This document shows positions 9,081-52,119 of a DNA stretch of 64,000 nt, piece by piece; positions within the stretch are counted from its first letter, which is position 1; every line of letters begins with the position of its first letter. Where the stretch lies: contig OZ244937.1 of the NCBI GenBank assembly GCA_965222075.1, forward strand, positions 2,976,001-3,040,000, given 5' to 3'. The notes under the pieces were generated by a model. The model was not told the origin of the DNA. It worked only from the letters and a program-made list of their open reading frames with translations, and ran no database searches. Made by a program: the position numbers and the translations under genes. Source of the stretch: Candidatus Latescibacterota bacterium (GTDB taxonomy: Bacteria; Latescibacterota; UBA2968; GCA-2709665).

Positions 9081-9102
9081 GTAAATCCCAAAATCCAGTA
9101 AA

Positions 9103-9160
9103 GAAATCGCTCGAATCGGACGACCTCCGGCCAAAGGCCGGGGCATTCTGCGAGATTTTC
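9103..9160. repeat. 58-bp palindromic element, copy 2, flanked by gtaaa direct repeats
   Basis: gtaaa at 9098-9102 and 9161-9165. Confidence 0.85.
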
Positions 9161-9226
9161 GTAAATCCTGATCCTGACAATTGCACGGTCTCACGCCGAA
9201 GAAACTGCTATTGTGGAGGAAAGAGA

Positions 9227-32573: not shown

Positions 32574-35500
32574 TTACGAAGTTCCATCCCTCCAGAAAAA
32601 GAGACTGCTTCGTTCCCGGCAGAACTCATAAAATGCCTTAAAACACCTGTTGGCCTTCAAGTCCTCCTCCATTTGAGGCACGGTTGAGAAAAACATCCGG
32701 CTTCCCACCACAATCAGCTTCTGTCTTGCGCGTGTGATTGCCACGTTGAAACGGTTCGGATTGTTCAGAAAATGGCTCGTGATATGATCCGGATCGGATG
32801 CCGTAAATGCGAACAGGATCACATCCCGTTCGGCCCCCTGAACGCGCTCTACAGTATCGATCAGGGGAAGCGTCTCGCCCACGAGCAACCTCCCAAGCCG
32901 GTCTGCGGTGGCGTTGTTCTGCGCTCGATGTGGGGAAATCAAGGCCAGTTGATCTGCGGTCAAACCGTATCTGCTCATCAGCCGATAGGCAAGTTCAGTC
33001 ACAATTTCAACTTCCGGATCCGACTTCTGGTGGCACCCCCGATGATCCACCACCAGGAGTGAGACCGGTTTTTCAGGGTCAAGAACGCAATCCAACAAAT
33101 CGTTCTGTCGGGGGTCACTTAAAACAAGCCGGCTATGGGCGTTGTCAGCCGCGGCGACAAGCGTCCCGTCGTACCAGGTCCGGCTTGGAAAAGCACACAG
33201 CTCCTCATTCATCCGATAGGTCTGATCCAGCCGGACACGGCATGCCGGACCATAACAATCCAGAAGATGGGAAAGGACCGACCGATGCGCGTCGAACGTC
33301 GCGCCTGCATCCTCACCGTAGTCTCCCAGAACCACGGGCGGCAGCTGTTTCACATCGCCGTAAAAGAGAACTTTTCCCTTTCCATAAATCAGGCTCAGAA
33401 GCGCCTGGGGGATGAGCACCTGAGAAGCCTCATCGAAAACAACCCGGTCAAACACCTGGGGAAAGGCGCCTTTGCGTCCCTCAAACATCTGATAAAGCCC
33501 AAACCCCGTAGCACCCAGAATCACATAAGGATATTCCGCAAGCGCTTCCACACTGTCCAGGGGTTCTACGCGCCAGCCGCCTTCTACCGCCGGGTCTTCC
33601 CCTTCCCAGCGTCCCCACTTCAGACACTTCCCCGGAAAGTCCTGCAAGCCGTGCTGTCTGACCAGTGTCACCACCTTTTGCAGCACCTGGTCAATGGCCT
33701 GATGCGTCAATGCGCTCACCACAATACGCAGCGGCACCCCCACCTCCCGGGCTTGTTGAATGAGGGCGATCAACGTCCAGCCCAGCAAATGCGTCTTACC
33801 CGTTCCCGGCGGCCCCTCAATCAAGCTCACGCGGTACTGGAAAGGAAGGGCCAGCGCCTGCTGCTGCGTCGGGTTGAGTCCCGATACCGGCCCAAACGCA
33901 CCCAGCCAGTTCTGCGCCCAGCGCAGCCCTTCGGGGTCCTGGTCTGTGGACCACCCGCCCGAAAACAGCTTCGACAGCGGATGGGGGCGGTCCGCAGAAA
34001 AAACCGTCCGAACCGCGTGGACCAGCTTTGGACCGTTCCAGTCGGTCACGTCCTCCTCTAAGGAACAGACCAGCCGCCGATTCAGGGCCAGCCGCCCCTG
34101 TCGGGAATGCACCCACACCCGACCGGCATTCCGATCGTCCGCAGCCAGAATAACGGGAAAGCCGCTTTGAAGATCGGGCGTGCCGACCGGTGCAAGTTTA
34201 AGAAAATCGCCCTCACGAAATTTTGAAACCCCGGCCTCCGGATCGGTCTCAAACCCGTAAAGAAAACGGCCTTCGTCGTCAAGCGCCGTCTCCTGAAAAC
34301 GCAGCGGACCCATGGCCCGGAAGCGCTCCACGCGTTCTTCTAAAGTATATGCCTGCAGGGTGAGAATATCCTCTTCTCGAAGTCGCTTTTCCTCCTCTAA
34401 AAAATTCAAATACGGCGTCTCCGGCGCGTAGACCACACCGGGCACCACCTCCCAGCCCCTCTGTTCCCACTCGCTCTCCAGATGCGAAGACGCCCATCGC
34501 CAGACCCCCGCCTGAAGGGTCAGAATAGCGTCCACGCGTTCGGCCATCTCCCTCCGCTGACCTTCGTTCCGCGCCCATTCTTCGGGCAAAACACAGGGGG
34601 CGTCATCTGCATGGAACAGACTCTCCGGCTCACGCAGTTCCGGCTTCAGCCCCAGCAGGCGTCCAAGGGAAAAAAGCGTCAAATTACCGGGCGCGGGGAG
34701 GTCGAAATGCGCCCCAACCAGCCGCCGCAGGTCGGTCCGGTGGGTGCGTTCGTGCGCCCACAGGAAGGCCAGCTCTGTCGCCTCGCCCCACACCTGGAGC
34801 GCCTGCCAGCACCGCTCCCCAAAATGAAACACGTGCGGCCCCTGTCCTCCTTCAACGCTTTCTTCCCACACCTTCAAAAATCGCTCTGTAAAAGCCTGCA
34901 ACACCTGCGGCAGTTCACCCTCCGATGCGTCAACCCAGACCTGGCCGTCTACAACGGTCCCCCCCCGCAACGCCCGCCAGCCTGCACCGCGCGGCAACCC
35001 CGAAATCGGGTCTTCAATCAGATGGATGAAAATGGCCGTTGAAAGGTTATCCGGAAAAAGCCGGGTCTTCCGTTCCCGAAGGCCAATCCGGTTTGTTCTC
35101 AGAGCCGTAAGACGGCCCTCCAGCAGTTCTCGCTGGTGCGGGCTGAAAAGATCGCCCTCGACCGGTTCTTGAGACGGTCGTTCAAACCACGCACCGGCTG
35201 CCTCTACGGTCTTCAGCCCAAGCGCCCGAAACTTCTGCAAAGCGCCCGCAGTCAATTGCGGCAGAAACAGCACGTCTTCTACCCCGAGCGCCTCCCGGTA
35301 ACAATGCTCAAAATTGGGACAGGTCGTGCAGTGGGTCCGGAGCCGATAGGTCGCTTCCGAAGGCGCCTTCAGCAAAACCTCGCCCACATTTCGAAAGAGC
35401 ATGGGAAACGCGGCCAGATAAGGCTGGAGATCAAACCTGTGCTGCTCGGGCGCCTCAGTCCGTAGGCGTGGACGCAGCATCAGAAAACCCGAAGCGGCAA

Positions 35501-38369
35501 CCTCGGCCTGCACCTGTGGGCGAATCAACGCCTTCAGCATCAGGGCGTAAAACGCCACCTGCCATTTCTGGCTGTCATAGGGCATCCGACTATCCTTGAT
35601 ATCCCCCACCTCTATCAGCGGCCCCCGATCCCCCATCGAAACCCGGATGAGATCGGGAATACCAACCCCGTCTACGCCGCACAGCCAATCGTCTTCCCGG
35701 CCCAGCACGGATGGCAGGATCAGGACGGCCTGAGCGAGCACAAACGACCGGTCCGGCTCCGATTCGACTCTGTGGACCAGGCATTTCAGCTGTTCTAAAG
35801 ACGCTTCAAACCGCGCCTTCAGGGAATGCCTCCGGCCATCGGCATCGATCTCCTCCACAACGGACAGCGCCTCTCCACTATCCCGGATGTGGTCCAGCAC
35901 TCGCCGCTCGTGCAGCCTTCCCCGCTCCATCCGCAGCGCTCCTGAATCCGTATCTCCCCCTCGCCATTCGGGGGGACGCTGGTCGGGCGGCATAAAATTG
36001 AGACTCAGCCACCGTTCACACTGCTGATGCCCAAGATAGGCCCCTACCATCGTCCCGGTAAGCGTCCGCGGCCGGTGCCGCGCATCCGGTCCAAACGCGA
36101 ACACATCCTGTTTTACGCCAATGCCCCACCGCTGCTTTTCTCCTGTCAACAGGGCATCTACCCCAGGCGCCGTATCAAACAGAACCGGCGTGCGCCGCTC
36201 CGCTTCTTGCACCTCCTGTTCAAGTACGGTGGGATCTCCTGAAACCACCTCCGAAGATCGGTCTGAATACCGGCGAAAAACCTCCGCGATCCGGCAATCA
36301 AAAAGAAAATCCGTCAGTTCCTCCACCAGCAACGCACGTGGCAAAACCGCACAGAAGGCATTCAACGGAAACAGCCCGCACAGGGCTTCCAGGTGCCGCT
36401 CTGTCCACCGGGAAAACGCCTCTTTCTCTGTGGGCAGAGAAAGGGTTTGGAAATCAATCCGATGTGAACAGTCGATCCCAACCTCATCGGAGACCACGGT
36501 AAGATCCTCCGGACGAGGACTTAAGTCGTGTTCAACCGTCCACTGAAGCACCAGATTGCCCACAGATCCGAGATAAGTCCAATAGCGGTAAAGCCCTCCC
36601 ACCCCGCGTCCAACCTCAATACCGTTATCCAGCACCACCCTTCGCCCGGCGCGATCCAGTGCGGTCTCCAACAGCCTCCGGGTGCGGGCAAACAGCCCCG
36701 GCGCCTGCGCTTCGGCGCCTGCCCGGAACACCTCCCGAATCGATTGGGCCACTTCGTAGGAAATCCGGAAGCCGGCGCCCAGCCAGAAAAGCTCCTTCTC
36801 GTCTAACCGGTCCACGGGCCGCGCCACCACATGCCTCCGCTCTCCGGCCTCGATCTTCAGAACCTGAAGGCGCTTCCCTGCAAGCTGCACCCGATCTCCC
36901 GGTTCAAGCTGTCGGACAACCGATTTCGGAAGGTCCGCAATCGCCTCTCCCGAAAGCTCTAAGGTATAATCCACCTCGGCTTCGGGGAAATTGCTCCAGA
37001 TCCGTCGTTCCAGAAAACAATCCCGGTAGCGCCGCCCGCCCCGGAAAAGGCCCCTGGTCCGGTCTTCCCGCAACCACCCCTGCCGGACCATCGAGGCAAA
37101 CAGAGGGTCAATGGCCTCCCGACGATCCGGAAACAGCGCCTGAAGAGCCGACAGGGAAATCCGCTTTTTCTCGTACAAACAGGAAAGGACCTGCTGGACC
37201 AGCACGCTGGGCAAGTCTCGGGGCTGGGGAGACTCAACGATGCCCTGCCGGGCCAGACGCAGTAGCCCCAAAAACCGAAAAAGCTGCGCCTCGGCCTCCT
37301 CTCCCCGGCAGATTCCCCAGAAGTGTGTGCAAGCCTCCCGGCGGTTGGACCGGCCGATGCGCTGGAGAAAGGCCGACGCCGAATCGGGCGGCTCGTAAAG
37401 CAGCACGCCGTCCACATCGCCGATATCGATGCCCAGTTCAAGCGTGCTTGTCGCAATACAGAGCGCGTGTGCACGGCGTCGAAACCGGTGCTCCACCCCC
37501 CGGCGTTCTTTCGACTTTAAATTGGAGTAGTGCAACTCGGTAACGCCCTGAAAACGCCCGTGGTGGCTTAAAAGCGAAAACAGCCGGTCGCAGCAGCTCC
37601 GGCTGTTGGCAAACACCAAAACCTTCCGGTAATCCCATACGTCGTAAAGATCGTCCAGCAGAGCGACGAGTTCGTGCTCATCGTTTTTCAGGTGAACGAA
37701 GTGGGGCGCAATCTCCCGCTGAACGGGCTCGGTTAACCGAACCGCATCGTCCCCAAACCCAAAAAATCGTACCACCGCATCCACGTCGGCAATCGTAGCC
37801 GAAAGGGCAACCTTCTGCACCGGCCCGGCCGTGCGGCGCTCTAAGCGCTGCAGCAAATAGGCCAGTTGTCGCCCCCGATAGCGATAAATCAGCGGATGCA
37901 CCTCGTCGATAATCACCGTACCGATGCGCTGTACAAAACCCCTCAGATCCGCGTTGGAGCTGCCCAGCGTGACATCCAAAGACTCGGGCGTCGTCAGCAG
38001 CAGATCCGGGCGCGCCCCACCGGCCCGCTTGAGATCCCCGGTGCGCACCCCCATCCGCAGGCCCAGCCGTTCGGCCAGAACCGGCGCCAGACGCCGCTCT
38101 AAGTCCACGGCTAAGGCCCGGGTGGGGACCACGTAAAGAACCGCCTGTTCTCGTCCCGATTGAATCACCCGTTCCATGCAGGGCGCCAGCACCGCCTCGG
38201 TCTTTCCCGACCCGGTTGCCGACTGCACAATCAGGTCTTTGCCCTCAAGCAGAGGTTCGATTGCCCGTTTCTGAATAGGATAAAGATAGGGAAAAGACCC
38301 GTAAAACGCCCGGTAAGTGTTGGGAAGTTGAAGGAGGGAGGAGGTTGAATCGTGGAGGAGAGGGGACAT
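32574..38369 (-). CDS. Lhr-like DEAH helicase + Fe-S RecB/TM0106-like nuclease + Dna2/Nam7-like SF1 helicase fusion
   Basis: ATGSGKT, DEVH, SAT, QRIGRSNR; C...PDL..DIK..QVAFY..CTTCPNFEHC; GPPGTGKT, DEASQ, GDVKQLPP, YRM, VQGAERD, NVAITRA. Confidence 0.88.
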   Translation of the reverse strand: MSPLLHDSTSSLLQLPNTYRAFYGSFPYLYPIQKRAIEPLLEGKDLIVQSATGSGKTEAVLAPCMERVIQSGREQAVLYVVPTRALAVDLERRLAPVLAERLGLRMGVRTGDLKRAGGARPDLLLTTPESLDVTLGSSNADLRGFVQRIGTVIIDEVHPLIYRYRGRQLAYLLQRLERRTAGPVQKVALSATIADVDAVVRFFGFGDDAVRLTEPVQREIAPHFVHLKNDEHELVALLDDLYDVWDYRKVLVFANSRSCCDRLFSLLSHHGRFQGVTELHYSNLKSKERRGVEHRFRRRAHALCIATSTLELGIDIGDVDGVLLYEPPDSASAFLQRIGRSNRREACTHFWGICRGEEAEAQLFRFLGLLRLARQGIVESPQPRDLPSVLVQQVLSCLYEKKRISLSALQALFPDRREAIDPLFASMVRQGWLREDRTRGLFRGGRRYRDCFLERRIWSNFPEAEVDYTLELSGEAIADLPKSVVRQLEPGDRVQLAGKRLQVLKIEAGERRHVVARPVDRLDEKELFWLGAGFRISYEVAQSIREVFRAGAEAQAPGLFARTRRLLETALDRAGRRVVLDNGIEVGRGVGGLYRYWTYLGSVGNLVLQWTVEHDLSPRPEDLTVVSDEVGIDCSHRIDFQTLSLPTEKEAFSRWTERHLEALCGLFPLNAFCAVLPRALLVEELTDFLFDCRIAEVFRRYSDRSSEVVSGDPTVLEQEVQEAERRTPVLFDTAPGVDALLTGEKQRWGIGVKQDVFAFGPDARHRPRTLTGTMVGAYLGHQQCERWLSLNFMPPDQRPPEWRGGDTDSGALRMERGRLHERRVLDHIRDSGEALSVVEEIDADGRRHSLKARFEASLEQLKCLVHRVESEPDRSFVLAQAVLILPSVLGREDDWLCGVDGVGIPDLIRVSMGDRGPLIEVGDIKDSRMPYDSQKWQVAFYALMLKALIRPQVQAEVAASGFLMLRPRLRTEAPEQHRFDLQPYLAAFPMLFRNVGEVLLKAPSEATYRLRTHCTTCPNFEHCYREALGVEDVLFLPQLTAGALQKFRALGLKTVEAAGAWFERPSQEPVEGDLFSPHQRELLEGRLTALRTNRIGLRERKTRLFPDNLSTAIFIHLIEDPISGLPRGAGWRALRGGTVVDGQVWVDASEGELPQVLQAFTERFLKVWEESVEGGQGPHVFHFGERCWQALQVWGEATELAFLWAHERTHRTDLRRLVGAHFDLPAPGNLTLFSLGRLLGLKPELREPESLFHADDAPCVLPEEWARNEGQRREMAERVDAILTLQAGVWRWASSHLESEWEQRGWEVVPGVVYAPETPYLNFLEEEKRLREEDILTLQAYTLEERVERFRAMGPLRFQETALDDEGRFLYGFETDPEAGVSKFREGDFLKLAPVGTPDLQSGFPVILAADDRNAGRVWVHSRQGRLALNRRLVCSLEEDVTDWNGPKLVHAVRTVFSADRPHPLSKLFSGGWSTDQDPEGLRWAQNWLGAFGPVSGLNPTQQQALALPFQYRVSLIEGPPGTGKTHLLGWTLIALIQQAREVGVPLRIVVSALTHQAIDQVLQKVVTLVRQHGLQDFPGKCLKWGRWEGEDPAVEGGWRVEPLDSVEALAEYPYVILGATGFGLYQMFEGRKGAFPQVFDRVVFDEASQVLIPQALLSLIYGKGKVLFYGDVKQLPPVVLGDYGEDAGATFDAHRSVLSHLLDCYGPACRVRLDQTYRMNEELCAFPSRTWYDGTLVAAADNAHSRLVLSDPRQNDLLDCVLDPEKPVSLLVVDHRGCHQKSDPEVEIVTELAYRLMSRYGLTADQLALISPHRAQNNATADRLGRLLVGETLPLIDTVERVQGAERDVILFAFTASDPDHITSHFLNNPNRFNVAITRARQKLIVVGSRMFFSTVPQMEEDLKANRCFKAFYEFCRERSSLFFWRDGTS

Positions 38370-38394: not shown

Positions 38395-39618
38395 CTACAA
38401 CACCCGTTCTTGATGCACCAGGTCCAGCTGGTCCACCAGCGCCTTCAGCTTGTAGCGGGTCTCCTGGCCCTGCATCTCGGCCAATCGTTCGGCCATCTCT
38501 TTGCGCACCCGTGCCGGCGGCGGCCGCCACTGGTAGGCCCTGCCGTGGAGGTGCATCAGTTTTCCGGCCAGTTCATCCCATTCCCGCCCGGATAGATCCT
38601 GTAACCGATAGCGCATCAGGCCTTTCCAGGTATCGGCATAATCCTTTTCAAAATAGGGCATTTCCAGGTCGCCCCGAACCTTCACCCGGTCGTATTCCTC
38701 TTCCTCTACCTTCTGAAAAAAGTCGTCCGTAAAAGCGAAAATCGGATAAAGATAACGAACCGTTGCCTCGGGGACAAACATCCGATCCAGGATCTGGTAA
38801 CTCCGGCTGCGGGCCGTAATACGCACCTGCGAGATCGATTCCCCCTCGTCAAACAGCAGCACCCACCCCCGGTACCCCATCTTCCGAAAAAGCCGGGCCA
38901 GCCCCCGGACCATCTGAAGATAAGGCTCGGCGCCCCGACAGGTCAGCGACGCCTGCATGTAGAAATCGACCTGCCGGTACTTGAGCGCGTGCCGCAGCCG
39001 GAAGACCGGCGCCACATCGCCTGCAAGCGCCCGGGAAAGCAGATAGGGAAATTCCCTTGGCCGGTACGACGCGTGTTTTTTGGTCTTCCGCTGCCGCCTG
39101 GAAAGCAAAACCGTCTTCTGCGCAATCCCCACCAGCACCGACCGGAACAGGTGGGGCATTTCCTCCGGCAGGAGGTCAACCACCCCGTTCTCAACCCCCT
39201 CGCCCGTCTGCCCCTCGGCCCACGTTCGCCACTGTGCAATCAACGACGCCCCGGTTCCCGGAAACCGCAGATTGGCCATCAGCGCCCGGTAAGTCTGCCG
39301 AAAATCGTGGAAGGCAACCTCCCGGGGATCCAGGTTGATCATACTGGTTACGAAATTTTCCCTCAGCGCCCGGCCCTGGATATAGGTCAAACTGTGCGAT
39401 TTCCCCTGCCCGTAGGCCCCGCAGATGCACAGGTGTGGGACCTTTCCTCGATCCAGCGCCTGGAACCCCCCGTCCACCGCCTGGTTCAGCCGCTCCTCGT
39501 GGGCCGTCAACAGCCGGACCGCCACCGGGTCGAACAGCCCCTCCCGCAGCCGTTCCACCGCGCGCCGCAAGTGAAAATCGGTCTCTCCGTCCAGCCTCTG
39601 AAAATCTCTCGTCCCCAT
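38395..39618 (-). CDS. BrxD/DUF2791-like P-loop ATPase (paralogue 2)
   Basis: AVERLREG, GAYGQGKSH, LLFDEGE; start overlaps upstream stop (TGATG). Confidence 0.8.
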   Translation of the reverse strand: MGTRDFQRLDGETDFHLRRAVERLREGLFDPVAVRLLTAHEERLNQAVDGGFQALDRGKVPHLCICGAYGQGKSHSLTYIQGRALRENFVTSMINLDPREVAFHDFRQTYRALMANLRFPGTGASLIAQWRTWAEGQTGEGVENGVVDLLPEEMPHLFRSVLVGIAQKTVLLSRRQRKTKKHASYRPREFPYLLSRALAGDVAPVFRLRHALKYRQVDFYMQASLTCRGAEPYLQMVRGLARLFRKMGYRGWVLLFDEGESISQVRITARSRSYQILDRMFVPEATVRYLYPIFAFTDDFFQKVEEEEYDRVKVRGDLEMPYFEKDYADTWKGLMRYRLQDLSGREWDELAGKLMHLHGRAYQWRPPPARVRKEMAERLAEMQGQETRYKLKALVDQLDLVHQERVL

Positions 39619-40922
39619 CACGCATCCCACTTCGGCTGAAGCTGCTCCACCTTCTCCTGCTCCATCTCCTGCTGGCTGGCCACAAGCTGCTCGCTCAGAT
39701 CCGCATCTTCGTCCGGAGGACTCCCCTGCTCGGCCATGTCCAGGAGGCGAATCACCTGTTTGATAAAAAGCCGAACTTCGCTTAAAAGCCCCATGCGCCT
39801 CTGGACAGCGCACACTTTTTTCATCAGCGCTTCCCCGATCTGGCCCTTTGTCTCCCACCTGTAAGCCAGCTCATGGATGCGGCACAGGCACAGCCCCAGT
39901 TCGAGCAGCTCTTTGGTCTCCAAAGGCGTCCTGTGCAAATCGATCAGCACGCTGCGGTAATTCAGTCGTTTGCCTTCGCCAATGGAGCGCACCCGACTCC
40001 AGAGCGCATCGTAAGACTTAAACCCCTTTTCCGAGAGGATCACATCGGGGATAATAGACATGAAAATGTGCAGGTAGGCCGCCTGCTCGGCATTGTCGAT
40101 CAGCAGCCGGACGTTCTCATAGGACGCATTGCGGATGGATGTCGATTGGGCAATCACCGTCTCTAACTCGTCCATCAGCAGAATCAGCCCCCTGTACCCC
40201 AAATGGTGCAAAAACGCAATCAAAGACCCCATAAAACGCTTGCTGTTGGTCTTGTCCAAAGCTTCAAAAATCTGGAACGGCTTTAACTCCCGCTTGCTTA
40301 CCCGCGCCCCTTCAAACCACTGGTAGAGCACTTCGCGCCCCTCAAGCCGGTCGCCTTCGGCCTCGCCCTCTTCCAGGGGTCTGAGTTGATTGTCCGCCAG
40401 CCCCATCAGCGCGTTGGCAAAATTGAGGTCCATCCCCGGAAGCGCGCGCAGAGATTCACCCAATGACGCCAGCCGCTCCTCAAGCGGAGGGCCCTCTTTT
40501 GTCGTCAGATCGGCCTTCAAGCTTTCTGTCCAGCCGTTGACCATCTGCCGGATACCCGTGCCTTCAAAAGTCCCGCAGAGTTGCCGGGCAATGGACTGGT
40601 AGACCACCTCGAATTTGTGGATGGGCACTTCGCGGGTGAGCACCACAAAGGATACCGCGAACGCCTTTTGCAGGGAAAGGTGTCGAACAATCGACATAAA
40701 ATGCGTCTTGCCGTCGCCGTAGTCCCCGTTGATAAAACGGACCTTGGCCCCGCCCTCCGCAATATAGTTATCTAAATCCTCTTCAATAAACTTCAGCCAG
40801 TTCTGGCGGCCCACCGTGAAAAACGGCACATGCTCGATCGGCACACTGCCCTTCCGGAGGTCTTCGATAATCGCCCGGGCCTCAAAGGGCTTCAACCTTT
40901 CCAGTTCTTCTCTGTGAGTCAT
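39618..40922 (-). CDS. BrxD/DUF2791-like P-loop ATPase (paralogue 1)
   Basis: IIEDLRKGSVP..VGR, GGAKVRFINGDYGDGKTH, LLMDELE, YDALWSR. Confidence 0.85.
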   Translation of the reverse strand: MTHREELERLKPFEARAIIEDLRKGSVPIEHVPFFTVGRQNWLKFIEEDLDNYIAEGGAKVRFINGDYGDGKTHFMSIVRHLSLQKAFAVSFVVLTREVPIHKFEVVYQSIARQLCGTFEGTGIRQMVNGWTESLKADLTTKEGPPLEERLASLGESLRALPGMDLNFANALMGLADNQLRPLEEGEAEGDRLEGREVLYQWFEGARVSKRELKPFQIFEALDKTNSKRFMGSLIAFLHHLGYRGLILLMDELETVIAQSTSIRNASYENVRLLIDNAEQAAYLHIFMSIIPDVILSEKGFKSYDALWSRVRSIGEGKRLNYRSVLIDLHRTPLETKELLELGLCLCRIHELAYRWETKGQIGEALMKKVCAVQRRMGLLSEVRLFIKQVIRLLDMAEQGSPPDEDADLSEQLVASQQEMEQEKVEQLQPKWDA

Positions 40923-40942: not shown

Positions 40943-41776
40943 TTATTTCTGAAAAGCAATCGTCGTAATCTGCCGCCGTTCGCCATCGCTGTCGATCAGC
41001 CAGAGGGCGCGGTTGCGTCCCGATCTGATCTGTAAGGCGTACCCATCCGAAGTGCCCCCTGTGTAGGCCTGAAAATAGCGCCAGAGGTCTACGGCGAACT
41101 GATCTAAGCTGTAGCCCCGGAACTTTCCCTTGTCCATATCCTGAAAAAAAGACTTGCTCTGAAGCGAAATCACGTATTCGAGATAAAACTGCTGCATCGG
41201 AACGGTCTCCCCCGGTTCCCCCTGCGCTTTCTTGAGAATATCCACGTAGACCTGAAAAAGCCCGTCGATAAACGCCTGCGGGTCGTAGGGACGGTCGTAA
41301 AGCTGCTGCTTCACCCTGCGAACCGCCGTGATAATACGCCTCGGGTCAACCGACTTCAACGTCTTGTTGTTGATCACGGTCTTCCGCACGGTAAAATCGA
41401 CGTTTCCCTCAATACCCTTCAAAACGGTAAACCGGGGAAAGTCGATCTTCATCGGAAGCTCGGCCTCTTTTGCCTGCGCCTTCAAATCTTTGATGAACTG
41501 GATGCGATAAAGCTCCACCTGTTCGTTGGCATAACCGCGCAGCTGATCCAGCAATGCCTTGCAGGCCTTCAGACCGGTCTCCGCTTCCACATCGCCGGCC
41601 ATCTTAGACCTGAGCAGTTCGTCGAGTTGAAAAAAATCGTTCCGGTCGGCGCACCGGATGCACTGCCGCACAAAATCGGCCATCCGCTGACGCCGGTTCA
41701 GCCGCTGTTGATAGGGCCTGAGCACCTCCGACAGCCCCTCCTGCATCTCTTCAAGAAATTCTCCATCATTTGCCAT
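40943..41776 (-). CDS. Hypothetical protein, first gene of the BrxD-like operon
   Basis: 277-aa ORF after aggaa, 20 bp upstream of the next gene. Confidence 0.7.
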   Translation of the reverse strand: MANDGEFLEEMQEGLSEVLRPYQQRLNRRQRMADFVRQCIRCADRNDFFQLDELLRSKMAGDVEAETGLKACKALLDQLRGYANEQVELYRIQFIKDLKAQAKEAELPMKIDFPRFTVLKGIEGNVDFTVRKTVINNKTLKSVDPRRIITAVRRVKQQLYDRPYDPQAFIDGLFQVYVDILKKAQGEPGETVPMQQFYLEYVISLQSKSFFQDMDKGKFRGYSLDQFAVDLWRYFQAYTGGTSDGYALQIRSGRNRALWLIDSDGERRQITTIAFQK

Positions 41777-42099: not shown

Positions 42100-42479
42100 T
42101 TTCTAACCCTTCTCACAATGTTCCAGAATCCAGGGCCAATCCCGCTGGATCGCCGCTTTCAGGGCCTCGACATCCGTTTTTCGTACCATCTTCTCCTCCG
42201 CCTATGTAGAAAATGCCAGCGAAAATCCACTTTCCACCTGAAAAGAAACTCCCAAATCCGGACCATAGACTCCGGATAATATAAGGAAATTCTCGCGCAT
42301 CAGAAAGTGTAATCCAGGCCCAAAATCTGGTGCCCGGATGGTGACCTTTAATCATTCTCTGCCCAACCAATACTTTCGTTCGAGTGGCCAGGAGATCAGC
42401 GCAATCCCCTTGAACCGCTCAAAGCGGCTGAAACCTTGGCGCCACCTGAAGATGGCGATCAATCAAACAGGTTCAGTTG

Positions 42480-42737
42480 ATCCAGTCCTCGACATCCACC
42501 AAAGGTCCAAGCCACATAAATCGCGCTTTTCCCTTTGATGTAACCCACCACTTGAGAAACCGCATACTTTGGGAGGACCGACACAAACATATGCACGTGA
42601 TCCCCCATCAGGTGGCCTTCCAATACCTAACTCTCCTTCTGGCGAGCCAATTCACGCAACACTTCGCCCAGATACTTACGCAAATGACCATACAACACTT
42701 TCTTCCGACATTTTGGAATCCACACCAAATGATACTT
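42480..42737 (-). mobile_element. tnpA: IS200/IS605 Y1 transposase remnant
   Basis: KYHLVWIPKCRKK..*..DHVHMFVSVLPKYAVSQVVGYIKGKS with internal stop at 42627-42629. Confidence 0.85.
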
Positions 42738-42805
42738 TAGCCCTTCAGAAAAAGAATCTGAAAAATAGGTAGTGCCTCCAGGGTGAGGTGATAAAATGGT
42801 GCTGA

Positions 42806-43000: not shown

Positions 43001-44203
43001 TTATATTTCCTCCAAGACGATCTCATATTTGGCAATGACGAAATTGTCAGGCTGATCATTCTGAATGTGATACAAAAAACCGTCTGCATCAGCGGCAATG
43101 CGTTGAAACCTTATTGGTATTTCCGATTGGAGAGGCATATCCGTCATTAAACATTGCCCTGTATTTACATCATACGCACTCAGGTAGTGAGAGCGCGTCC
43201 AGTTGGGTATGCCCCGGCGTACTTCTTCTGTTTGCAAAACCAACAAGAGTGAATGCTTAGCAACATACGCAATATCCACAAGAAATGTTATCGTCGAATG
43301 CTCGTTTTTCATTTTTTCAAAGGCCAATCTTGCTTTTGCTCTGTTGCTCAAATGTCGAAGTTTTGCCGCGTTTTTCTCAGCATCTTTATCAATCCACCTT
43401 GGTTTCGTAATCGGCGTTGCAACGTTGAAAACTCTGGAAACCGCATTCCTGTCGTCATATCTAACAACAATAGGGATGTTAAAGAACCAGAGATACGTTT
43501 GTGAATCGCCACTTGCGATAAATTTGGGAAATGACCACTTAAATTCCGCTAAAGGTTTGTCGAGTTTGTCACCGACGATCTCTTGATTGAATTTTCCATA
43601 ATAAGACAGTACGTTACCCAATGTATCAAATTCACAGATCAACCAGGGATAGGAGTATGATTGCCACTGCTTTTTGGGTAGTCCCACAGATTTCTGGCAG
43701 TGTAGAATGGTATGATGGAACGTGATTGCCACACGATTGCCCGAAGGTACTGACGTTTGCGTCTGGGTTCCAAAAGACCTTATGAACACGCCCGAAGTAT
43801 CAAACAGGGTTATTCTACGGGTTCCCTGGTCAAAACAAGCGACCATGTTGCCTTTGACATCCATCGTATATAAATAGCGAAATTCCCCAGGACCTTCGCC
43901 GCTTCTGCCCAAGGCGCGAATAAATCCGCCTTCCATAGAGAACATCAGAATTTGCTTCAGACTCTTGTCCATAAGATAAATTCGGTTTTCATCAACTATT
44001 ATTTTTAATATTTTTCCAATATAAGCTTCTTCTCTTTCTTTCAGGTGGATCTCGGAAACCTTCTCCATCCGTATCTGCCGGTTCTTCTTCGTATGCACGG
44101 TTGAACCTTGCAAAAGCGGTGTCTTTTCTTGAGGCATTTCCGCCTTTTGATTGCACGCAAAAAAGAAACAGAAAGCACAAAATAGAATGATTGAATTTGT
44201 CAT
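43001..44203 (-). CDS. 6-bladed beta-propeller lipoprotein
   Basis: Lipobox-like FFAC; GRSGEGPGEF motif. Confidence 0.8.
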   Translation of the reverse strand: MTNSIILFCAFCFFFACNQKAEMPQEKTPLLQGSTVHTKKNRQIRMEKVSEIHLKEREEAYIGKILKIIVDENRIYLMDKSLKQILMFSMEGGFIRALGRSGEGPGEFRYLYTMDVKGNMVACFDQGTRRITLFDTSGVFIRSFGTQTQTSVPSGNRVAITFHHTILHCQKSVGLPKKQWQSYSYPWLICEFDTLGNVLSYYGKFNQEIVGDKLDKPLAEFKWSFPKFIASGDSQTYLWFFNIPIVVRYDDRNAVSRVFNVATPITKPRWIDKDAEKNAAKLRHLSNRAKARLAFEKMKNEHSTITFLVDIAYVAKHSLLLVLQTEEVRRGIPNWTRSHYLSAYDVNTGQCLMTDMPLQSEIPIRFQRIAADADGFLYHIQNDQPDNFVIAKYEIVLEEI

Positions 44204-44319
44204 ACAAACAACCTTCTCGGAACACAATAACAAGGGAATAGAAATCGGGTTCAAGTCAGTAATTTCCGGTTACGCTCCGTTCCTCAACGCCATCTGAACT
44301 CTGCACGGCTCTCAATTAA

Positions 44320-47300
44320 TCACACTCGCTTTGCTTTGTAAAAAAGCGCGGGGAGTATCAATAATACGCCAACAGAGGAAAACCAGAGTCCACCGACAGT
44401 ACCCAAGGCAAAAGCGTGCCAGAGCGTGCCGTTTTGAAACCAGATTAAGAAGGGCAATAACCCGCCTATAGAAGTCGCGCCAGTGACCAGAATGGGACGA
44501 AGCCGACTCAGACAAACCTCGAATATTGCCGACTGGGGAAGAGGAGTTTGATTCTTCAGTGCTCTTTTTTGTAGCTGATAGAGTAAAATGATCGCGTTAT
44601 TAACAGAAATCCCTATCAAGAACACCATCGCAAAATATCCACCCTGTGTAAATACGCCGTCAAAAATGAAAAACACAAGAAAGAGCCCAATAAAAGCCAT
44701 TGGCACAGTCCAAAGAATGATAAAAGGTTGTCGAAAAGATTCATATAGTGCAGCCAAAATCATATAAATGAGGATAGCACTCAAAAAAACCGCACCCCAC
44801 AACGCCCCCTCATCATCAAAAAAATCAAATCCCCCCCTATTAAAACCATATCCCAGAGGCAAAACCATTGCGTCTCGGATTTTCCTGATAATTCGACCGC
44901 CATAGCGTCCTAGCCCTGCGTAGTCATAGGTCACCAAACGCGAGTAGGCTTGATTTCTTCTCTGAATAACGGGAAGTGTGGGGCGTTTTTCGATTTGTGC
45001 AATATCTTCTACTTTCAATACTCTTTCTGCGGCCTGTGTTTGTTTGTTCAGATCAGAAATGGTATGGACGCGATCTTCTGGGAGGTAATCTATATATACT
45101 GAAATATTCTTCTTTTGTCCCTCTATAGCAGACCGATACATTCCGTCCGGTAGGGTTAAACTGGAAATATGGCTGAACATTGCACCAACATCCTGATGCG
45201 CTTTCCACAATTGCTCTCTATCTGGTATTGCGACAACATTCCATGCAGGTTTTCTGCCAAATGATGCTTGATCTATCGAAATATTAGAGAAACGTCTGTG
45301 CTTAGAGATTTGCACAGCTAAATTTCGCGCTATTTCTTTTACCTTCAAATAATTATAACCACTCACGAAAGTGAAAAGTTTTGAGATATCAGCTCCTCTC
45401 ATATTCCGAAATCCCGGACCATACCCCTGAACTGAGCATTCTATGCCGCCAAGCGAAACAGCCACCTGCTCAAATACCTGGTGGAGCGTGATCAGTAAAT
45501 CATCTGGATCTTGCCTGCGCGCCATTTTAACCTTCAAAAGTGCTTCGTAATTATTCGCAACACGCGTTTCGTAATAAATATCTGAAGGAAATTTGTCCAA
45601 ATGGGTCTCAAATGCAGACACGACTTGTAAAAGATATTTGACCTCTGTATAACGAGGCATTTTAATTCCAACAGTTACATAACTTTCCTCTAATCTTACA
45701 CGTCCTTCCACAGATCCAACAATGGGAACATGGCGATAAAATAAATAATGGCTTCCCCCCAGCACAGTGTCAATATAAGGTCTCGCATTCAAGTACGCCT
45801 CACTTGCAAAGATCGCATCGTATAATTCAGCAAACCGCGATTTAATCATCTGTGTAGTAGATAATTCACGTCCACTCTCTGTGCTTTGAACACCAGATGC
45901 CATATTGTCTGGCAAGAGCCACATCGGTATTCCAAACAACCACACCATCGCAACCAGAGCAAATCGTCGGTAACGAATTGTTTTATTCAATAGCCACCAG
46001 TAAGCAGCTTGCCACCCACCTCGTTTTTCGGATTCGGTCTGAGCAGAAATAACCCCTTGAGGATGATTTTTTTTAGATCGCAAAATAAAGCGGTGGGTAG
46101 CGACATAAACCAGTGTAAAAGCAGACAAAGTCGAGGCTACGAGGGCGCTTGATACGACAATGGCAAAAGGTATGAGATAAAGTTTTGTTTGAGCCGACAA
46201 AATGACCAGAGGTAAAAACGCGCCAAGCGTCGTAAGCGTAGATGCGAGTATAGGCATTCTAACACTTCGAATGCCACTCTCTTCTAATGCACCAGTGTTG
46301 CGAGTCGCATGGTCTTTTTGCAACCGGTCAATAACCACAATAGCATTGTCAGCCATGATACCCAATGCAATGCCAAGCCCAATCAAAGTCACGCTGTTCA
46401 AACTGATTTTGCAAAAGAACATCACAATAAACGTCAAGCATAGAGAAAATATTAAAGAAACAAATACAATGATAACGGCTGGCACAGAACGAAACGCAAC
46501 AAGCAAAATCAAGAACAGACACCCGGCAGAAAAAACCACACTTTTAAGTAAAACCGAAATATCTTCTTTCAAATCCTGGCTTCTGTCTTGAATGACATCG
46601 ATTTTGACCTGGCGTGGTAAAGCACGTTCTTTTTTTAAATTCTCCAACTTTTTGTGAATATTGTCGGCAAGGGCTAAAATATTAGACCCCGGTTCGCGCG
46701 TGATTTCCATGACCACAAAGTCGCGCCCATTGATTCGAAAAAAAGTTTCGGGATCGTCATAATCGTATTTTATGGTCGCTATATCACCGAGCAAAACAGT
46801 CAGGTCGCCTGCTGAAATAGGCAATTTGGAAAGCGCGGAAACAGGGTGAGTATCCAAAGATTCTAATTTGACCCAGAATGTCTGGTCATTATTAGATATT
46901 TTTCCAAGATAAATTTTTCTATTAAATGCAGAGATTTGTTGATAAATCTCCCGGAGATTCAAGCCCAAAGAATTTATCATCGCTTGGGAAACTTCAATTC
47001 GCAAGACTTTCTGCGCCCCTCCAGTAATGCTAATTTCACCAACCCCATCCATACCGATAAGCTCAGGCCTTAAAATTTCTTCTGAAATTTTGCGAAGTTC
47101 ATGAAGGCTTTTTAAGCCCAATATTCTCAGACGCATAAAACCAATTTTATCGCGAAATTCTTTGGGAACATAAGGTCGAATTTTAGGAGGTTTAATCCCT
47201 TCGGGAAGTTGCTCATAGAAACGAGCCAATTTGTCTTTTAACTCCAGACGAATAAATGTCGGGTTGGCTGTTCTCAATAGCTCTATCGTCAACTGTGCAT

Positions 47301-47565
47301 AGCCAAAACCAGAACTGGAACTCACACTCTTAACGCCAGGGATGCTGACAGCGATCGCTTCAAGAGGTGCTGTTAATTGTGCCTCTATCGATTCTGGAGA
47401 AGCCCCTGTCCATGACGCAGAAAGACTCATCCGGGGATATTCTAAAGCAGGCAGCAGTTCAATAGGCAATTGCAAAACAGCGATCAGGCCAATCGAAATG
47501 ACAGCAATCGTAAACATGGCGACCGCTATGGGCCGCCTTTGTAATTTATCAGTAAATGTCATCAA
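44320..47565 (-). CDS. RND efflux permease (AcrB/AcrD/AcrF family), subunit 2
   Basis: RRPI, GIMADNAIVV, STLTT, YES..QP, RLRPILVT. Confidence 0.92.
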   Translation of the reverse strand: MMTFTDKLQRRPIAVAMFTIAVISIGLIAVLQLPIELLPALEYPRMSLSASWTGASPESIEAQLTAPLEAIAVSIPGVKSVSSSSGFGYAQLTIELLRTANPTFIRLELKDKLARFYEQLPEGIKPPKIRPYVPKEFRDKIGFMRLRILGLKSLHELRKISEEILRPELIGMDGVGEISITGGAQKVLRIEVSQAMINSLGLNLREIYQQISAFNRKIYLGKISNNDQTFWVKLESLDTHPVSALSKLPISAGDLTVLLGDIATIKYDYDDPETFFRINGRDFVVMEITREPGSNILALADNIHKKLENLKKERALPRQVKIDVIQDRSQDLKEDISVLLKSVVFSAGCLFLILLVAFRSVPAVIIVFVSLIFSLCLTFIVMFFCKISLNSVTLIGLGIALGIMADNAIVVIDRLQKDHATRNTGALEESGIRSVRMPILASTLTTLGAFLPLVILSAQTKLYLIPFAIVVSSALVASTLSAFTLVYVATHRFILRSKKNHPQGVISAQTESEKRGGWQAAYWWLLNKTIRYRRFALVAMVWLFGIPMWLLPDNMASGVQSTESGRELSTTQMIKSRFAELYDAIFASEAYLNARPYIDTVLGGSHYLFYRHVPIVGSVEGRVRLEESYVTVGIKMPRYTEVKYLLQVVSAFETHLDKFPSDIYYETRVANNYEALLKVKMARRQDPDDLLITLHQVFEQVAVSLGGIECSVQGYGPGFRNMRGADISKLFTFVSGYNYLKVKEIARNLAVQISKHRRFSNISIDQASFGRKPAWNVVAIPDREQLWKAHQDVGAMFSHISSLTLPDGMYRSAIEGQKKNISVYIDYLPEDRVHTISDLNKQTQAAERVLKVEDIAQIEKRPTLPVIQRRNQAYSRLVTYDYAGLGRYGGRIIRKIRDAMVLPLGYGFNRGGFDFFDDEGALWGAVFLSAILIYMILAALYESFRQPFIILWTVPMAFIGLFLVFFIFDGVFTQGGYFAMVFLIGISVNNAIILLYQLQKRALKNQTPLPQSAIFEVCLSRLRPILVTGATSIGGLLPFLIWFQNGTLWHAFALGTVGGLWFSSVGVLLILPALFYKAKRV

Positions 47566-50500
47566 TTTTTACGCACCACTATGCCATACAAGGCAGGCAC
47601 AGCGAATAAAATCAAAAAGGTTGACAACCCAATACCCCCAATAATCGTCCAGGCAAGCGGATGCCACAACTCAGCGCCTACCCCTTTGCTAAGCGCCATG
47701 GGAATCAATCCCAAAATCGTTGTGACCGTCGTCATAATAATAGGTCGAAGACGTTTTCGCCCGGCCTCCTGAATCGCGACCAGCAGAGTCGCTCCCTCTT
47801 TATATCGCTTATCAATAAAATCGATTTTAACAATAGAATCATTAACGACGATGCCCACCAGCACCACAATGCCAATCAGAGACATAATATTTAAAGATTG
47901 TCCTGTGATCAGGAGAGTAAAAACGACACCTGCCAGGGCAAGCGGAACTGCCGTGAGAATAACAAATGGCAGACGCAGAGACTCAAAATGGGACGCAATG
48001 ACCATAAAAACGAGAGCAACCGAAAGGGCAATAATGACGGTTAAATTATCGAACGACTCAGCGATAAAGGCATTTTGTCCCACGATTTCAACATGATATC
48101 CTTCGGGTATTTCCAGTTGGTTGAGATAAGCCTGTAAATTCTGAGAAATCTCGACGGGATCTTCTCCCCGAACGTCGGCCAAAATTGCCACAACTCTCGT
48201 GCCCTTTTCATGTCGAATTTCGGCATACCCCACGCCTTCTCTCACGCGAATAAATTCCCGCAGGGGTAGCATTGTACCAGACTGATGCGGTATTTCAGCA
48301 TTCAAGAGATCGGACAATTGCATCTGGGCATCTCGTTTTATTGTCACCTCTAAAGGTGTTTTGCTGCCAAAGGCTTCAATCTGGCTCGCCTCAACGCCGC
48401 GCAAGTACGCGCCTAAAAAATCAATGATCTGCTGTGATGTAATACCGTAGTGGGCGGTTCGGTCTCTGTCTATGTAAATGTGGTATTCGGGATTTCCAAG
48501 TTTCGGAACAATCCGAATGAAATCGAGTGAAGTCCAGGTGGTCAGTGTCTTTGCAATATTCTGTGCGATAGATTCGCATTTTTTTAAATCGGGTCCAAAG
48601 AAACGTATTTGAATCTCACTCGGAGATAACTGAAAAAGAGTTACAAAAGCGGACTGGGGTTCTTGAATTTCGATATCACAACCAGGAAATTCCCTTATGG
48701 TTTCCTGAACACGTTGAATAAACGGATCAAAAGAATAACCCTCCTTGAATCGTACTTCAATTTTTGCAGTTTCTACAGATACCTCATCGCGTTGTGTTGA
48801 CAAAACCGCATGTACAATACCCACTTGAGAAAAGACGTCTTTAACCCCCGGATGATCGAGAAATAAACCTTCTACTTTACTGGCAATATGGCGTGTGACA
48901 AGTAGATCCGTCCCCTGGGGTAGAGAAATTTTAATGGTGATGCCTCGCTGATCAACCGATGGCACAAGCTCTTTCTCAAGCCCTGAATACAGATAGGCAG
49001 AGAGTCCCAATAGGCATCCACAAATGCAGAGTACAAAGACGCGATGTTGAATCACCCACCGCAAACGCGCTTCATACCAGCGGGCAAATGCGTTAAACAC
49101 GGTCTGAAATGCGTCAAAAAGGAGATTAAAAACAAAAAAAATAGGCCGCGTAGCAAATGTTGTCAGGCCATGTAAGAATTGAAATAAACCGCGTGTTAAA
49201 TTCCGATGAAAATATCCGGGGTCTTCTGTTATGGTATCTGAGCTCGGAACATGATCTGATGATGTTTGTTCAATACCTCTGAGACGAGAAGTCAACATGG
49301 GAAGAAGGGTTAAAGACACCAAAAGGGAGATCAAAAGCACACATGTCACGGCCATTGAGAGGTCAAAAAAGAGCTCTCCTGCTAATCCTTTTACAAAAAC
49401 CATAGGGGAAAAAACGGAAACAGTGGTGAGGGTTGACGCTGTTACCGCGAGACTGATTTCACGACTTCCAGAAATTGCAGCCGACATAAGCGGCTTGCCG
49501 CTTTCCCGGTGTCTTTGAATATTTTCCAAAACGACGATAGAATTATCAACGATCAATCCCGTGCCTAACGCCAATCCACCTAAGGAAATAACGTTAAAAT
49601 TTATTTTCAGCAGGAACAGGAGGATGAATGTCGCAGTGATTGCTATCGGTATGGCGACACCAACCATCGCAGGAATTTTCCAGCCCCTTAAAAAAAGAAA
49701 AAGAACACCGAAGGCACAGCTGGCCCCTAAACACAGGGACATTAATACATTGTGAATAGCTTGCTCAATAAAAAATCCTTGATCTGAAATGACCCCTACT
49801 TTAAAGCCTGGAAATTCGCGCTGTATTTGACCCAAGATTCGATGCACTTCCCGACAGCTCAAGACGGTGTTGCTACTGCCTTCTTTTAAGATGGACAAAG
49901 CAACAACCTCTCGCCCATTCCAATTTGTAAAACCGGATCTTTCTCGATAAGATTCTAAAACTGATGCCACATTTGAAAGATAAATCACAGCTCCATTAGA
50001 TTTCCGTCCAATGATCGTTTTTTGAATATCCTCTACTGCTTGAAATTGGCCAATGGCCCGAAATGAATAACGAAAAAGTCCTTTTCGAATCGTGCCCACA
50101 GACCGCTGCGTCCAGTTGTTGCGGTCAAGTGCTTGAGCTACCTGGGGCAATGCAATCCCCATACTATTGAGGCGGTTTATGTCGACAATAACACTTATTT
50201 CGCGTTCAATACCCCCTAAAATAACCGCTTGAGCAATACCCTTTATCTGCTCCAACCTGCGTTTGGCAATAAATGTAACAAAATCTTTGAGTTCGATTAA
50301 TGCCTCAATCGCATCGGGCTGGTTCTTTGGATTTTCAAGGCGATTAGAAGTTACAACCAACGTCATAATGGGATCTGCAGCCGGATCAAACCGCAACAGA
50401 TTTGGCCTCCCTGCGGATTCCGGGAGCGCATAAGACAAATCATCGAGTTTCTCCCTCGCTTCCAAAAGCACCTGATCCATACGCGTTCCCCAATAAAACT

Positions 50501-50780: not shown

Positions 50781-50804
50781 CGTCTGTCCAGAATCTCTTA
50801 AATT

Positions 50805-52034: not shown

Positions 52035-52119
52035 AACCTTGAATCCGTTATACACGCAAGAAAAAAAAGCAATCGGGCTGTTTTCACTGCAATAAGACAA
52101 TTATTTGACAATATCAAGT

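Follow-up and report, generated by a model that had tools for sequence, protein, structure and literature searches.

A BrxHI-type helicase fused to a Dna2-like nuclease-helicase in a conserved four-gene cassette of Candidatus Latescibacterota

The 64,000-nucleotide stretch analyzed here (the window) covers positions 2,976,001 to 3,040,000 of contig OZ244937.1 (assembly GCA_965222075.1), the single contig of the 5.36-Mb genome of a Candidatus Latescibacterota bacterium. Its reverse strand carries an open reading frame (ORF) for a giant protein of 1931 amino acids (aa), in which a superfamily 2 (SF2) helicase is joined to an iron-sulfur (Fe-S)-type nuclease and a superfamily 1B (SF1B) helicase. 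The gene is the last of a conserved four-gene cassette that recurs in at least two phyla. The reading that we favor, and hold at about even confidence, is that the giant is a single-chain bipolar helicase-nuclease and the effector of a cassette related to Shango and to the BrxD-BrxHI module, with the restriction of phage or plasmid DNA as its likeliest role.

Architecture and conservation of the giant protein

The giant and its domains map to the window as follows.

32574..38369, reverse strand: giant ORF, 1931 aa, comprising SF2 helicase, Fe-S-type nuclease, DEDD fold, barrel and SF1B helicase
37335..38294, reverse strand: SF2 RecA-like core of the DExH type, aa 26-345 (Pfam DEAD and Helicase_C; Lhr matches in the Protein Data Bank, PDB)
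36273..37334, reverse strand: BrxHI/Lhr-type accessory region, aa 346-699 (match to the PADLOC BrxHI profile PDLC02503)
35253..36074, reverse strand: Cas4/Dna2-type PD-(D/E)xK nuclease with four cysteines, aa 766-1039 (AlphaFold2 [AF2] model and structure comparison)
35094..35252, reverse strand: short helical linker, tentatively named helix-hairpin-helix (HhH)-like, aa 1040-1092 (helices of the model; invariant P and G)
34461..35057, reverse strand: DEDD-exonuclease (RNase H-like) fold in which the acidic set is not conserved, aa 1105-1303 (structure comparison)
33999..34439, reverse strand: Upf1/Ighmbp2-type N-terminal stalk and beta-barrel, aa 1311-1457 (superposition on Ighmbp2 4b3f)
32670..33887, reverse strand: SF1B helicase core of the Dna2/Upf1 type, aa 1495-1900 (Pfam AAA_11, AAA_12 and AAA_19; Dna2 and Upf1 matches)

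The N-terminal part contains SF2 motifs I (ATGSGKT, residues 51-57), II (DEVH, 155-158), III (SAT, 190-192) and VI (QRIGRSNRR, 336-344) and was matched by Pfam DEAD (residues 30-196, E 5.7e-34) and Helicase_C (238-343, E 3.5e-16). The PADLOC BrxHI profile PDLC02503 aligned residues 26-699 with positions 22-688 of its 698 (E 6.5e-92), and because the match extends so far along the profile, it implies that residues 346-699 would hold the accessory domains that follow the core, namely a winged helix, a barrel and an Lhr-like C-terminal domain. The SngC profile of PADLOC (720 positions) matched residues 26-626 (E 2.1e-72). The best sequence matches of the N terminus in the PDB were Lhr cores (5v9x, E 1.5e-31; 7lhl, E 7e-31), and Lhr models scored more weakly on it than BrxHI did (PRK09751, E 2e-24; TIGR04121, E 3.1e-58, partial).

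For the middle of the protein (aa 690-1500), a sequence search of the PDB returned nothing at E values up to 10, the TIGR03491 (TM0106) model gave 18.7 bits (E 6.8e-4), below its curated cut-off of 97.45, and Pfam PDDEXK_1 matched residues 885-1021 weakly (E 3.3e-4; 21.1 bits, under the cut-off of 22). We describe this region from an AF2 model built with a 33-homologue alignment (predicted local distance difference test [pLDDT] score, 83.3; predicted template modeling [pTM] score, 0.73), in which the residue number plus 689 gives the number in the giant protein. Model residues 77-350 superposed on Cas4 7mi4_A with a Z score of 12.6 (198 residues; root mean square deviation [rmsd], 4.1) and on Dna2 5ean_A with a Z score of 12.0. 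In Foldseek, the nuclease part matched Dna2 best (E 3.4e-5), followed by AdnA (2.3e-4) and Cas4 (9.6e-4), and AddB, RecBCD chains, Exo5, MGME1 and RecE were also among the matches. The nuclease residues are C784, P905-D906, D923-I-K925, Q937-x3-Y941 and C1014-x2-C1017-x5-C1023.

Downstream of the nuclease, the model has two short helices at residues ~1040-1092, followed by a domain (model residues 416-614; aa 1105-1303) that superposed on the DEDD exonucleases REXO2 (Z 11.9) and ERI2 (Z 11.6) and on RNase T and PolB exonuclease domains (Z ~11); across these superpositions, Z was 10.4-11.9, with 134-168 residues aligned and an rmsd of ~3. Model residues 622-768 fitted the stalk and barrel of Ighmbp2 4b3f (Z 11.9, 139 residues, rmsd 4.2). 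The SF1B core carries the motifs GPPGTGKT (1519-1526), DEASQ (1646-1650), TVERVQGAERD (1839-1849) and NVAITRAR (1875-1882) and was matched by Pfam AAA_11 (E 2.1e-19), AAA_12 (E 1.6e-28) and AAA_19. Its best sequence match in the PDB was Dna2 5eaw_A (E 6.8e-23, aa 1495-1898), and Upf1 (E 4.7e-21), Ighmbp2 and Sen1 came next. Over the C-terminal 1170 residues, the parts follow one another as in Dna2 (Fe-S-type nuclease, barrel and SF1B helicase), with a DEDD-fold domain inserted. The four-cysteine PD-(D/E)xK nuclease, the barrel and the SF1B core likewise stand in the same order in Bad. The giant differs from Dna2 in having the DEDD-fold domain between nuclease and barrel, a domain that is present in the TM0106 profile and unaligned to Dna2, and it differs from both Dna2 and Bad in that a whole SF2 helicase module is fused ahead of these parts.

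We counted residues in an alignment of 165 full-length homologues, which share 39-100% identity with the query and were not dereplicated. The SF2 residues K56, D155, E156, S190-A191-T192, Q336, R337, G339, R340 and R343 were each present in 165/165, as were K1525, T1526, D1646, E1647, Q1650, R1719 and Q1844 of the SF1B core, with R1842 and R1880 each in 164. The four nuclease cysteines were nearly as constant (C784, C1017 and C1023 in all 165; C1014 in 164), and the catalytic positions of the nuclease were D906 in 162, D923 in 146, K925 in 160, Q937 in 161 and Y941 in 155 homologues. Judged by these residues, both motors and the nuclease look active. The only conserved polar positions of the DEDD-fold domain were D1120 (134 of 165), H1179 (157), D1213 (157), H1221 (151) and S1299 (161). 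D1120 and D1213 are the only acidic ones among them, and the conservation scan found no DxE acidic motif in the domain, which is probably no canonical exonuclease.

These results bear on an earlier reading of the DNA letters and their translations (the original prediction), which had described full SF2 motifs, a nuclease string of the form C...PD..DxK..QxxxY..CxxCxxxxxC, HhH-like and degenerate RNase H-like segments, and full SF1 motifs in one frame of 1931 codons without a frameshift. Both motif sets and every residue of the nuclease string could be located, in agreement with the Pfam matches, the Cas4/Dna2 fold of the model and the Dna2 match of the SF1B core, and the degenerate RNase H-like segment proved to be the DEDD fold. 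The HhH-like segment is plausible, given its two helices and the P and G that are invariant in the alignment, and no profile match was found for this stretch that would support the name. The prediction would have been undermined by an inactive motor, and the full conservation of K56, D155/E156, K1525 and D1646/E1647 lends no support to that possibility.

The frame itself is intact. The giant gene is a single ORF of 1931 codons plus a stop, with an ATG start and zero internal stops. Contigs from two other sequencing studies (runs X3 and X6) span the whole gene with 12 and 14 substitutions, respectively, and 0 indels; these substitutions introduce no stop and change just 2 and 3 amino acids. A closely related genome (L006) has the gene at 96% identity. 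Homologues always encoded by two separate genes, with a stop in the reads here, would also have counted against the original prediction; the homologues are not always split in this way, and the reads show no stop. Among the 120 best homologues listed (one of which is the window's own protein), 117 have both PF00270 and PF13087 in 1882-2174 aa, and the remaining 3, of smaller size, have no DEAD domain. At 41 of the 42 metagenome loci whose contig contains the full gene span, one ORF of 1785-2197 aa was found; the exception (L053) has ORFs of 1037 and 1005 aa. Outside that count, L086 and L048 also look interrupted. In the second phylum, open frames of 1934-2077 aa were found at 7/8 places, the eighth having 980 aa only. 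With both helicase families in 117 of the 120 listed homologues, the architecture is far beyond chance. The SF2-nuclease-SF1B fusion is conserved and real, and it is no assembly artifact because it is kept in homologues, in metagenome loci and in the contigs of two other studies. Shorter proteins also occur: P0266-P0312 (~685-830 aa; some on long contigs) align with 98-100% of the N-terminal SF2 module at 43-70% identity, and they may be split genes, truncations or stand-alone relatives of the giant's N terminus. Short contigs in two sponge metatranscriptome runs (X19 and X20) are 99-100% identical to parts of the giant gene. These contigs are a hint of a habitat associated with sponges and perhaps of transcription; because carried-over DNA could also explain them, we did not count them as expression.

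With aa 804-1931 as the query, a search of 1.84 billion representatives retrieved 455 proteins at E values of 1e-30 or better. Besides giants, they included the stand-alone proteins P0155, P0171, P0184 and P0203 (~1240 aa), in which a RecB-like nuclease of the TM0106 family (TIGR03491) precedes an SF1B helicase; P0155 scored 107.3 bits on TIGR03491, above the curated cut-off of 97.45. These proteins fit the layout of Bad from Geobacillus stearothermophilus, to which they were compared by architecture only. Bad is described as an Fe-S cluster-containing single-stranded DNA endonuclease, 5'-to-3' translocase and helicase, with D150 of the nuclease and K815 of Walker A as key residues (PMC7430649). 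P0227 (2128 aa) is a fusion in the reverse order, with an SF1B helicase at residues 47-479 and a DpdJ/YprA-type SF2 helicase at 706-1409. Two-helicase polypeptides therefore already exist in a known defense system.

The four-gene cassette and its genomic setting

Three genes precede the giant on the same strand.

40943..41776, reverse strand: first cassette gene, 277-aa protein of no known family, starting at M35 of a 311-aa ORF
39618..40922, reverse strand: brxD1, first BrxD-like AAA+ ATPase, 434 aa (Pfam PF10923, PADLOC BrxD)
38395..39618, reverse strand: brxD2, second BrxD-like AAA+ ATPase, 407 aa (Pfam PF10923, PADLOC BrxD)

The order is 277-aa gene, brxD1, brxD2 and giant, with spacers of 20, -1 and 25 nucleotides, and the ATG of brxD2 overlaps the brxD1 stop codon (TGATG). 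BrxD1 was matched by Pfam PF10923 (BrxC_BrxD; E 5.9e-57), PADLOC BrxD (1.1e-41) and SngB (2.7e-33), and BrxD2 was matched by PF10923 (E 7e-25) and PADLOC BrxD (E 1.3e-18). Walker A and Walker B are conserved in 30 sequences of each protein (GDYGDGKTH and LLMDELE in BrxD1; GAYGQGKSH and LLFDEGE in BrxD2). The two paralogues are fixed in order, a D1-type gene lying ahead of a D2-type gene in 29/29 loci, and BrxD2 orthologues are 404-432 aa long. The BrxD1 profile found no PDB relative at E 0.01.

The 277-aa protein has 27 orthologues with a mean column identity of 59%. It matched no Pfam, NCBIfam or PADLOC family (PADLOC at E 1e-3; Pfam at E 0.05, save a chance-level match to DUF5402) and solely unnamed clusters in the ESM Atlas. 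Its AF2 model (pLDDT 91) consists of a long helical hairpin, a small beta part and a C-terminal helix/hairpin unit. None of the PDB folds compared with it was significant, the best Foldseek E value being 0.54 (ORC1/Cdc6-type chains); in VIA-align, the best Z score was 7.7, on the helical hairpin, and residues 165-277 gave Z 6.0 against an OCCM chain, the matches from these comparisons being of a generic helical kind. A winged helix at the C terminus of this protein is only a lead from the model. A complex prediction for BrxD1 and the 277-aa protein scored 0.01 against a mark of 0.32, which has no bearing either way.

The trio of upstream genes stood ahead of the giant at 7/7 Latescibacterota-type genome loci and was present in 5/5 further genomes from the phylum of the Eth-SRB genome. 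Among 32 metagenome loci with at least 3.9 kb of upstream sequence, 24 had the trio, 7 had a Pif1-like helicase instead, and 1 (L094) had the trio downstream. In L094, the permuted cassette occupies 7850..17390, with the giant first and a 278-aa gene, BrxD1 and BrxD2 following on the same strand.

The cassette is rare, patchy and accessory. Of 151 genomes of the phylum, 9 gave a match to the giant's middle region (by family, 1/18, 6/30 and 1/64), and 7/401 genomes of the second phylum matched the N-terminal module at E 1e-100 or better. The cassette sits at differing chromosomal places in related genomes. A sister genus shows synteny downstream of glnS, and nothing upstream of glnS matches the window there; in genome G071, ~1.5 Mb separates glnS from the cassette, which is flanked by a sulfatase gene on one side and a ComM-like gene on the other.

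A search of the 5.36-Mb genome with PF10923 returned only the two cassette genes; PglX, PglZ and PglW were not searched for separately. With no other PF10923 gene in the genome, there is no BrxC and therefore no BREX (bacteriophage exclusion) system, and we rejected BREX membership of the cassette, whose neighbors are glnS and an insertion sequence (IS) remnant. Elsewhere in the genome (G000:C1:897694-903868; L116 4694..10868), an AddB-like gene (910 aa; PDDEXK_1, 68.8 bits) is followed by a gene for an AddA-like helicase-nuclease (addA_alphas, E 6.3e-73). Judged by sequence, this is the conventional end-processing pair of the genome, and its existence led us to reject the giant as the sole end-resection enzyme.

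We also scanned the flanks of the cassette, to a distance of ~3.9 kb, at 36 loci (114 ORFs) with PADLOC models, without a baseline or an enrichment test. A handful of these ORFs matched defense models strongly, among them DpdF (6.7e-209), PDC-S01 (5.3e-154), PDC-S02 (3.6e-154), PsyrT (4e-111) and SoFic (2.4e-61), as well as mad2 in 3 flanking ORFs and the mad3 model.

Around the window's own cassette, the DNA just past it (42-52 kb) has a G+C content (GC) of 0.43-0.50. Where native-GC DNA gives way to low-GC DNA, ~0.7 kb upstream of the cassette, there is a remnant of an IS200/IS605-type TnpA gene with an in-frame TAG (42462..42740, reverse strand); the part after the TAG matches two IS200 transposases of Sulfolobus (2ec2_A, E 5.7e-6; 2f4f_A, 1e-5). 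The adjoining low-GC block (43001..52100, reverse strand) encodes a DUF5128 beta-propeller protein, two AcrB-type resistance-nodulation-division (RND) transporters (1081 and 1072 aa) and an HlyD-type membrane-fusion protein, and it looks horizontally acquired. Further along, 57498..62414 (reverse strand) encodes a 1638-aa protein that combines a Ser/Thr protein kinase with an AAA_16 (STAND-like) ATPase, TPR repeats, GAF, a sigma-54 activator domain and HTH_8.

Proposed mechanism and competing explanations

The cassette resembles two known modules. As in type-2 BREX (Pgl), the gene for a BrxHI-type SF2 helicase directly follows that for a BrxD-type ORC/Cdc6-like ATPase. BrxD and BrxHI form a tightly linked dyad in which BrxD has been proposed as a loader, and the available portion of the same source proposes an unwinding role alone for BrxHI and calls the role of BrxD uncharacterized (PMC12839542). 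The cassette differs from type-2 BREX in that it has no BrxC, PglX, PglZ or PglW partner (the search with PF10923 bearing on BrxC), in the duplication of the ATPase into two fixed paralogues and in the ~1230 extra residues of its helicase, which comprise the nuclease and the SF1B helicase. Shango (SngA, SngB and SngC), in which a TerB-like protein, an ATPase and a DEAD/DEAH helicase protect against phages (bioRxiv 10.1101/2022.11.11.516204), shares with the cassette the order of small protein, ATPase and DEAD/DEAH helicase, and its SngB-type ATPase and SngC-type helicase both have matched counterparts here. Shango has one ATPase, whereas the cassette has two, and the fused nuclease-helicase of the giant lies outside the 720-position SngC profile.

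Two further comparisons concern the joining of two motors. DpdJ of the Dpd systems is a precedent from a defense setting for a single polypeptide with both an SF1B and an SF2 helicase, and the PADLOC DpdJ profile PDLC02895 (2112 positions) matched aa 1496-1914 of the giant (E 8.8e-49). In DpdJ, unlike the giant, the SF1B helicase comes first, the SF2 helicase is of the YprA type rather than the BrxHI/Lhr type, and no iron-staple nuclease was seen in the rows examined. RecBCD, AddAB and AdnAB share the proposed logic of two motors of opposite polarity with a RecB-family nuclease (containing Fe-S in AddB). They are multisubunit enzymes with SF1A UvrD-like and SF1B RecD-like motors, whereas the giant is one chain with an SF2 and a Dna2-type SF1B motor.

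On the model that we favor, the N-terminal BrxHI/Lhr-type SF2 module would track one strand in the 3'-to-5' direction, the direction in which Lhr translocates on single-stranded DNA (PMC5758891). The C-terminal Dna2/Bad-type module, with its iron-staple nuclease, barrel and SF1B motor, would track the complementary strand 5' to 3' and feed that strand into its own nuclease. Bad and Dna2 move 5' to 3' and cleave the strand along which they travel (PMC7430649). Opposite polarities on the two strands of a duplex mean that the motors would travel the same way, as in RecBCD; both would thus drive the giant into the duplex from an end, nick or fork, degrading it. The ORC/Cdc6-like BrxD1 and BrxD2 would probably load or license the SF2 module. 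Eukaryotic end resection pairs a RecQ-type helicase with DNA2, and functionally the giant would be a fused counterpart of that pair or of RecBCD/AddAB. The original prediction had proposed just such a single-chain, bipolar enzyme analogous to RecBCD. Of this proposal, the presence of both motors and the nuclease in one conserved chain stands, while the polarities follow from family membership and the analogy to RecBCD serves as a working model. The two features that constrain function most, namely the BrxHI match along the entire profile and the place of the gene behind two BrxD-like ATPases as the fourth of a conserved cassette, were not part of the original prediction. A more specific version, to which we give only tentative credence, makes the cassette a self-contained system against foreign DNA, in which a heteromeric BrxD1-BrxD2 loader, aided by a DNA-binding 277-aa partner, would place the giant on phage or plasmid ends or on replication intermediates, where it would degrade both strands processively with no modification mark.

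Restriction of phage or plasmid DNA is the likeliest role because the layout of the cassette parallels those of Shango and the BrxD-BrxHI dyad of type-2 BREX. We prefer defense to housekeeping repair because the BrxHI profile is matched over its full length, BrxD partners are present, the gene order resembles that of Shango and the BREX dyad sets a precedent, and also because the cassette is rare and variably located and the genome has a separate AddAB-like pair. The opposite polarities, the Fe-S cluster, the cooperation of the motors, loading by BrxD and the defense role itself are inferred rather than shown.

Several observations weigh against this reading. The polarity, Fe-S content and motor coupling of the giant rest on family membership, and Lhr and Dna2 are repair or replication enzymes, so the architecture also fits a role in repair. 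No TerB domain, such as SngA of Shango has, was detectable in the first cassette protein by PADLOC and Pfam searches, and on the NCBIfam BREX_BrxD model, BrxD1 (140 bits) and BrxD2 (65 bits) both fell under the cut-off of 350. In a second cassette type, an 833-aa Pif1-HRDC-HTH_40 helicase replaces the trio, so BrxD partners are not obligatory; this variant is confined to near-identical Eth-SRB-type loci (6/8 genome loci and one metagenome series). The GC of the cassette (0.58-0.60) is native to the genome (0.593), and the flanks in the window and in the g4 genomes are ordinary genes (glnS, sulfatase, ComM-like and an RND efflux operon) with no defense island; the PADLOC models that matched flanking ORFs also match nondefense relatives. 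Finally, the cassette contains no methyltransferase or self-marking gene, and discrimination of self from nonself is left unexplained.

Some of the same points favor the strongest alternative, which we consider rather unlikely: that the giant belongs to an accessory DNA repair or recombination machine with BrxD-like loaders, acting in resection or fork processing at breaks, crosslinks or stalled forks and having no role against foreign DNA. The nearest characterized relatives of both halves, Lhr (PMC5758891 and PMC9841417), Dna2 and Bad, are repair or replication enzymes; native GC, the lack of a modification gene and the housekeeping flanks, which include an endonuclease III-like gene upstream in L036, point the same way. 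A repair function is harder to reconcile with so rare and patchy a cassette, which was not found in 17/18 other genomes of the same family searched, with its varying chromosomal location, with the AddAB-like pair already in the genome and with an N-terminal module far closer to the defense profile BrxHI than to Lhr models.

It is improbable that the giant serves a mobile element rather than the host, in the replication, transfer or counterdefense of an integrated element. The suggestion comes from the Eth-SRB-type Desulfobacterota, where the giant stands behind the Pif1-HRDC-HTH_40 helicase in the loci counted above, with an integrase fragment and a Fic gene nearby, and where one genome has two copies and a degraded further copy occurs at another locus; the IS200-type transposase remnant upstream of the window cassette could be read in the same way. 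Against it, a search of 2.9 million viral contigs yielded no relative, plasmid records gave two weak matches, to the nuclease domain only, the common cassette type had no adjoining integrase or transfer genes in the loci read, and the GC of the cassette is native. In the Eth-SRB1 genome (G151), the two full copies of the giant gene (L009 and L012) each lie behind a Pif1-HRDC-HTH_40 helicase; the degraded copy, in L013 (21100..25965), is fragmented and on the opposite strand.

We likewise see only a slim chance that the target is RNA or RNA:DNA hybrids, as in R-loop or transcript surveillance by an Lhr-type module that unwinds RNA:DNA and an Upf1-like SF1B motor that acts on RNA: the preference of Lhr for RNA:DNA duplexes (PMC5758891), the closeness of Upf1, Ighmbp2 and Sen1 behind Dna2 among the SF1B matches, a match to the profile of MkoA, the RNA-helicase-type protein of Mokosh (E 1.1e-39), and a DEDD fold typical of RNases are outweighed by Dna2 as the best SF1B sequence match, the Dna2/Bad order of nuclease, barrel and helicase, the missing acidic set of the DEDD-fold domain and the action on DNA of the iron-staple nucleases listed in the Bad paper (PMC7430649).

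Significance of the fused effector

Database records name homologues of the giant just "DEAD/DEAH box helicase." A literature search returned descriptions of the parts (BrxD-BrxHI, Shango, Bad and Lhr), and the fusion and the cassette were not found in it, though supplementary tables, which it did not cover, may list them. The parts are thus of known kinds. What we have not found in print is a BrxHI-type helicase fused to a Dna2/Bad-type nuclease-helicase and encoded behind a 277-aa protein and two fixed BrxD paralogues.

Known processors of double-strand ends achieve bipolar translocation by assembling separate subunits or proteins. If the favored reading is true, a single chain with a 3'-to-5' SF2 motor, an Fe-S nuclease and a 5'-to-3' SF1B motor would be a compact model for the coordination of motors and nuclease. 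The N-terminal module and its ATPase partners are of the same kind as those of type-2 BREX and Shango, and a form with a nuclease-helicase effector fused on opens the role of such modules to direct testing. Because the effector is built in, the cassette would, if the more specific version of the reading holds, reveal what the BrxD-BrxHI and Shango modules do.

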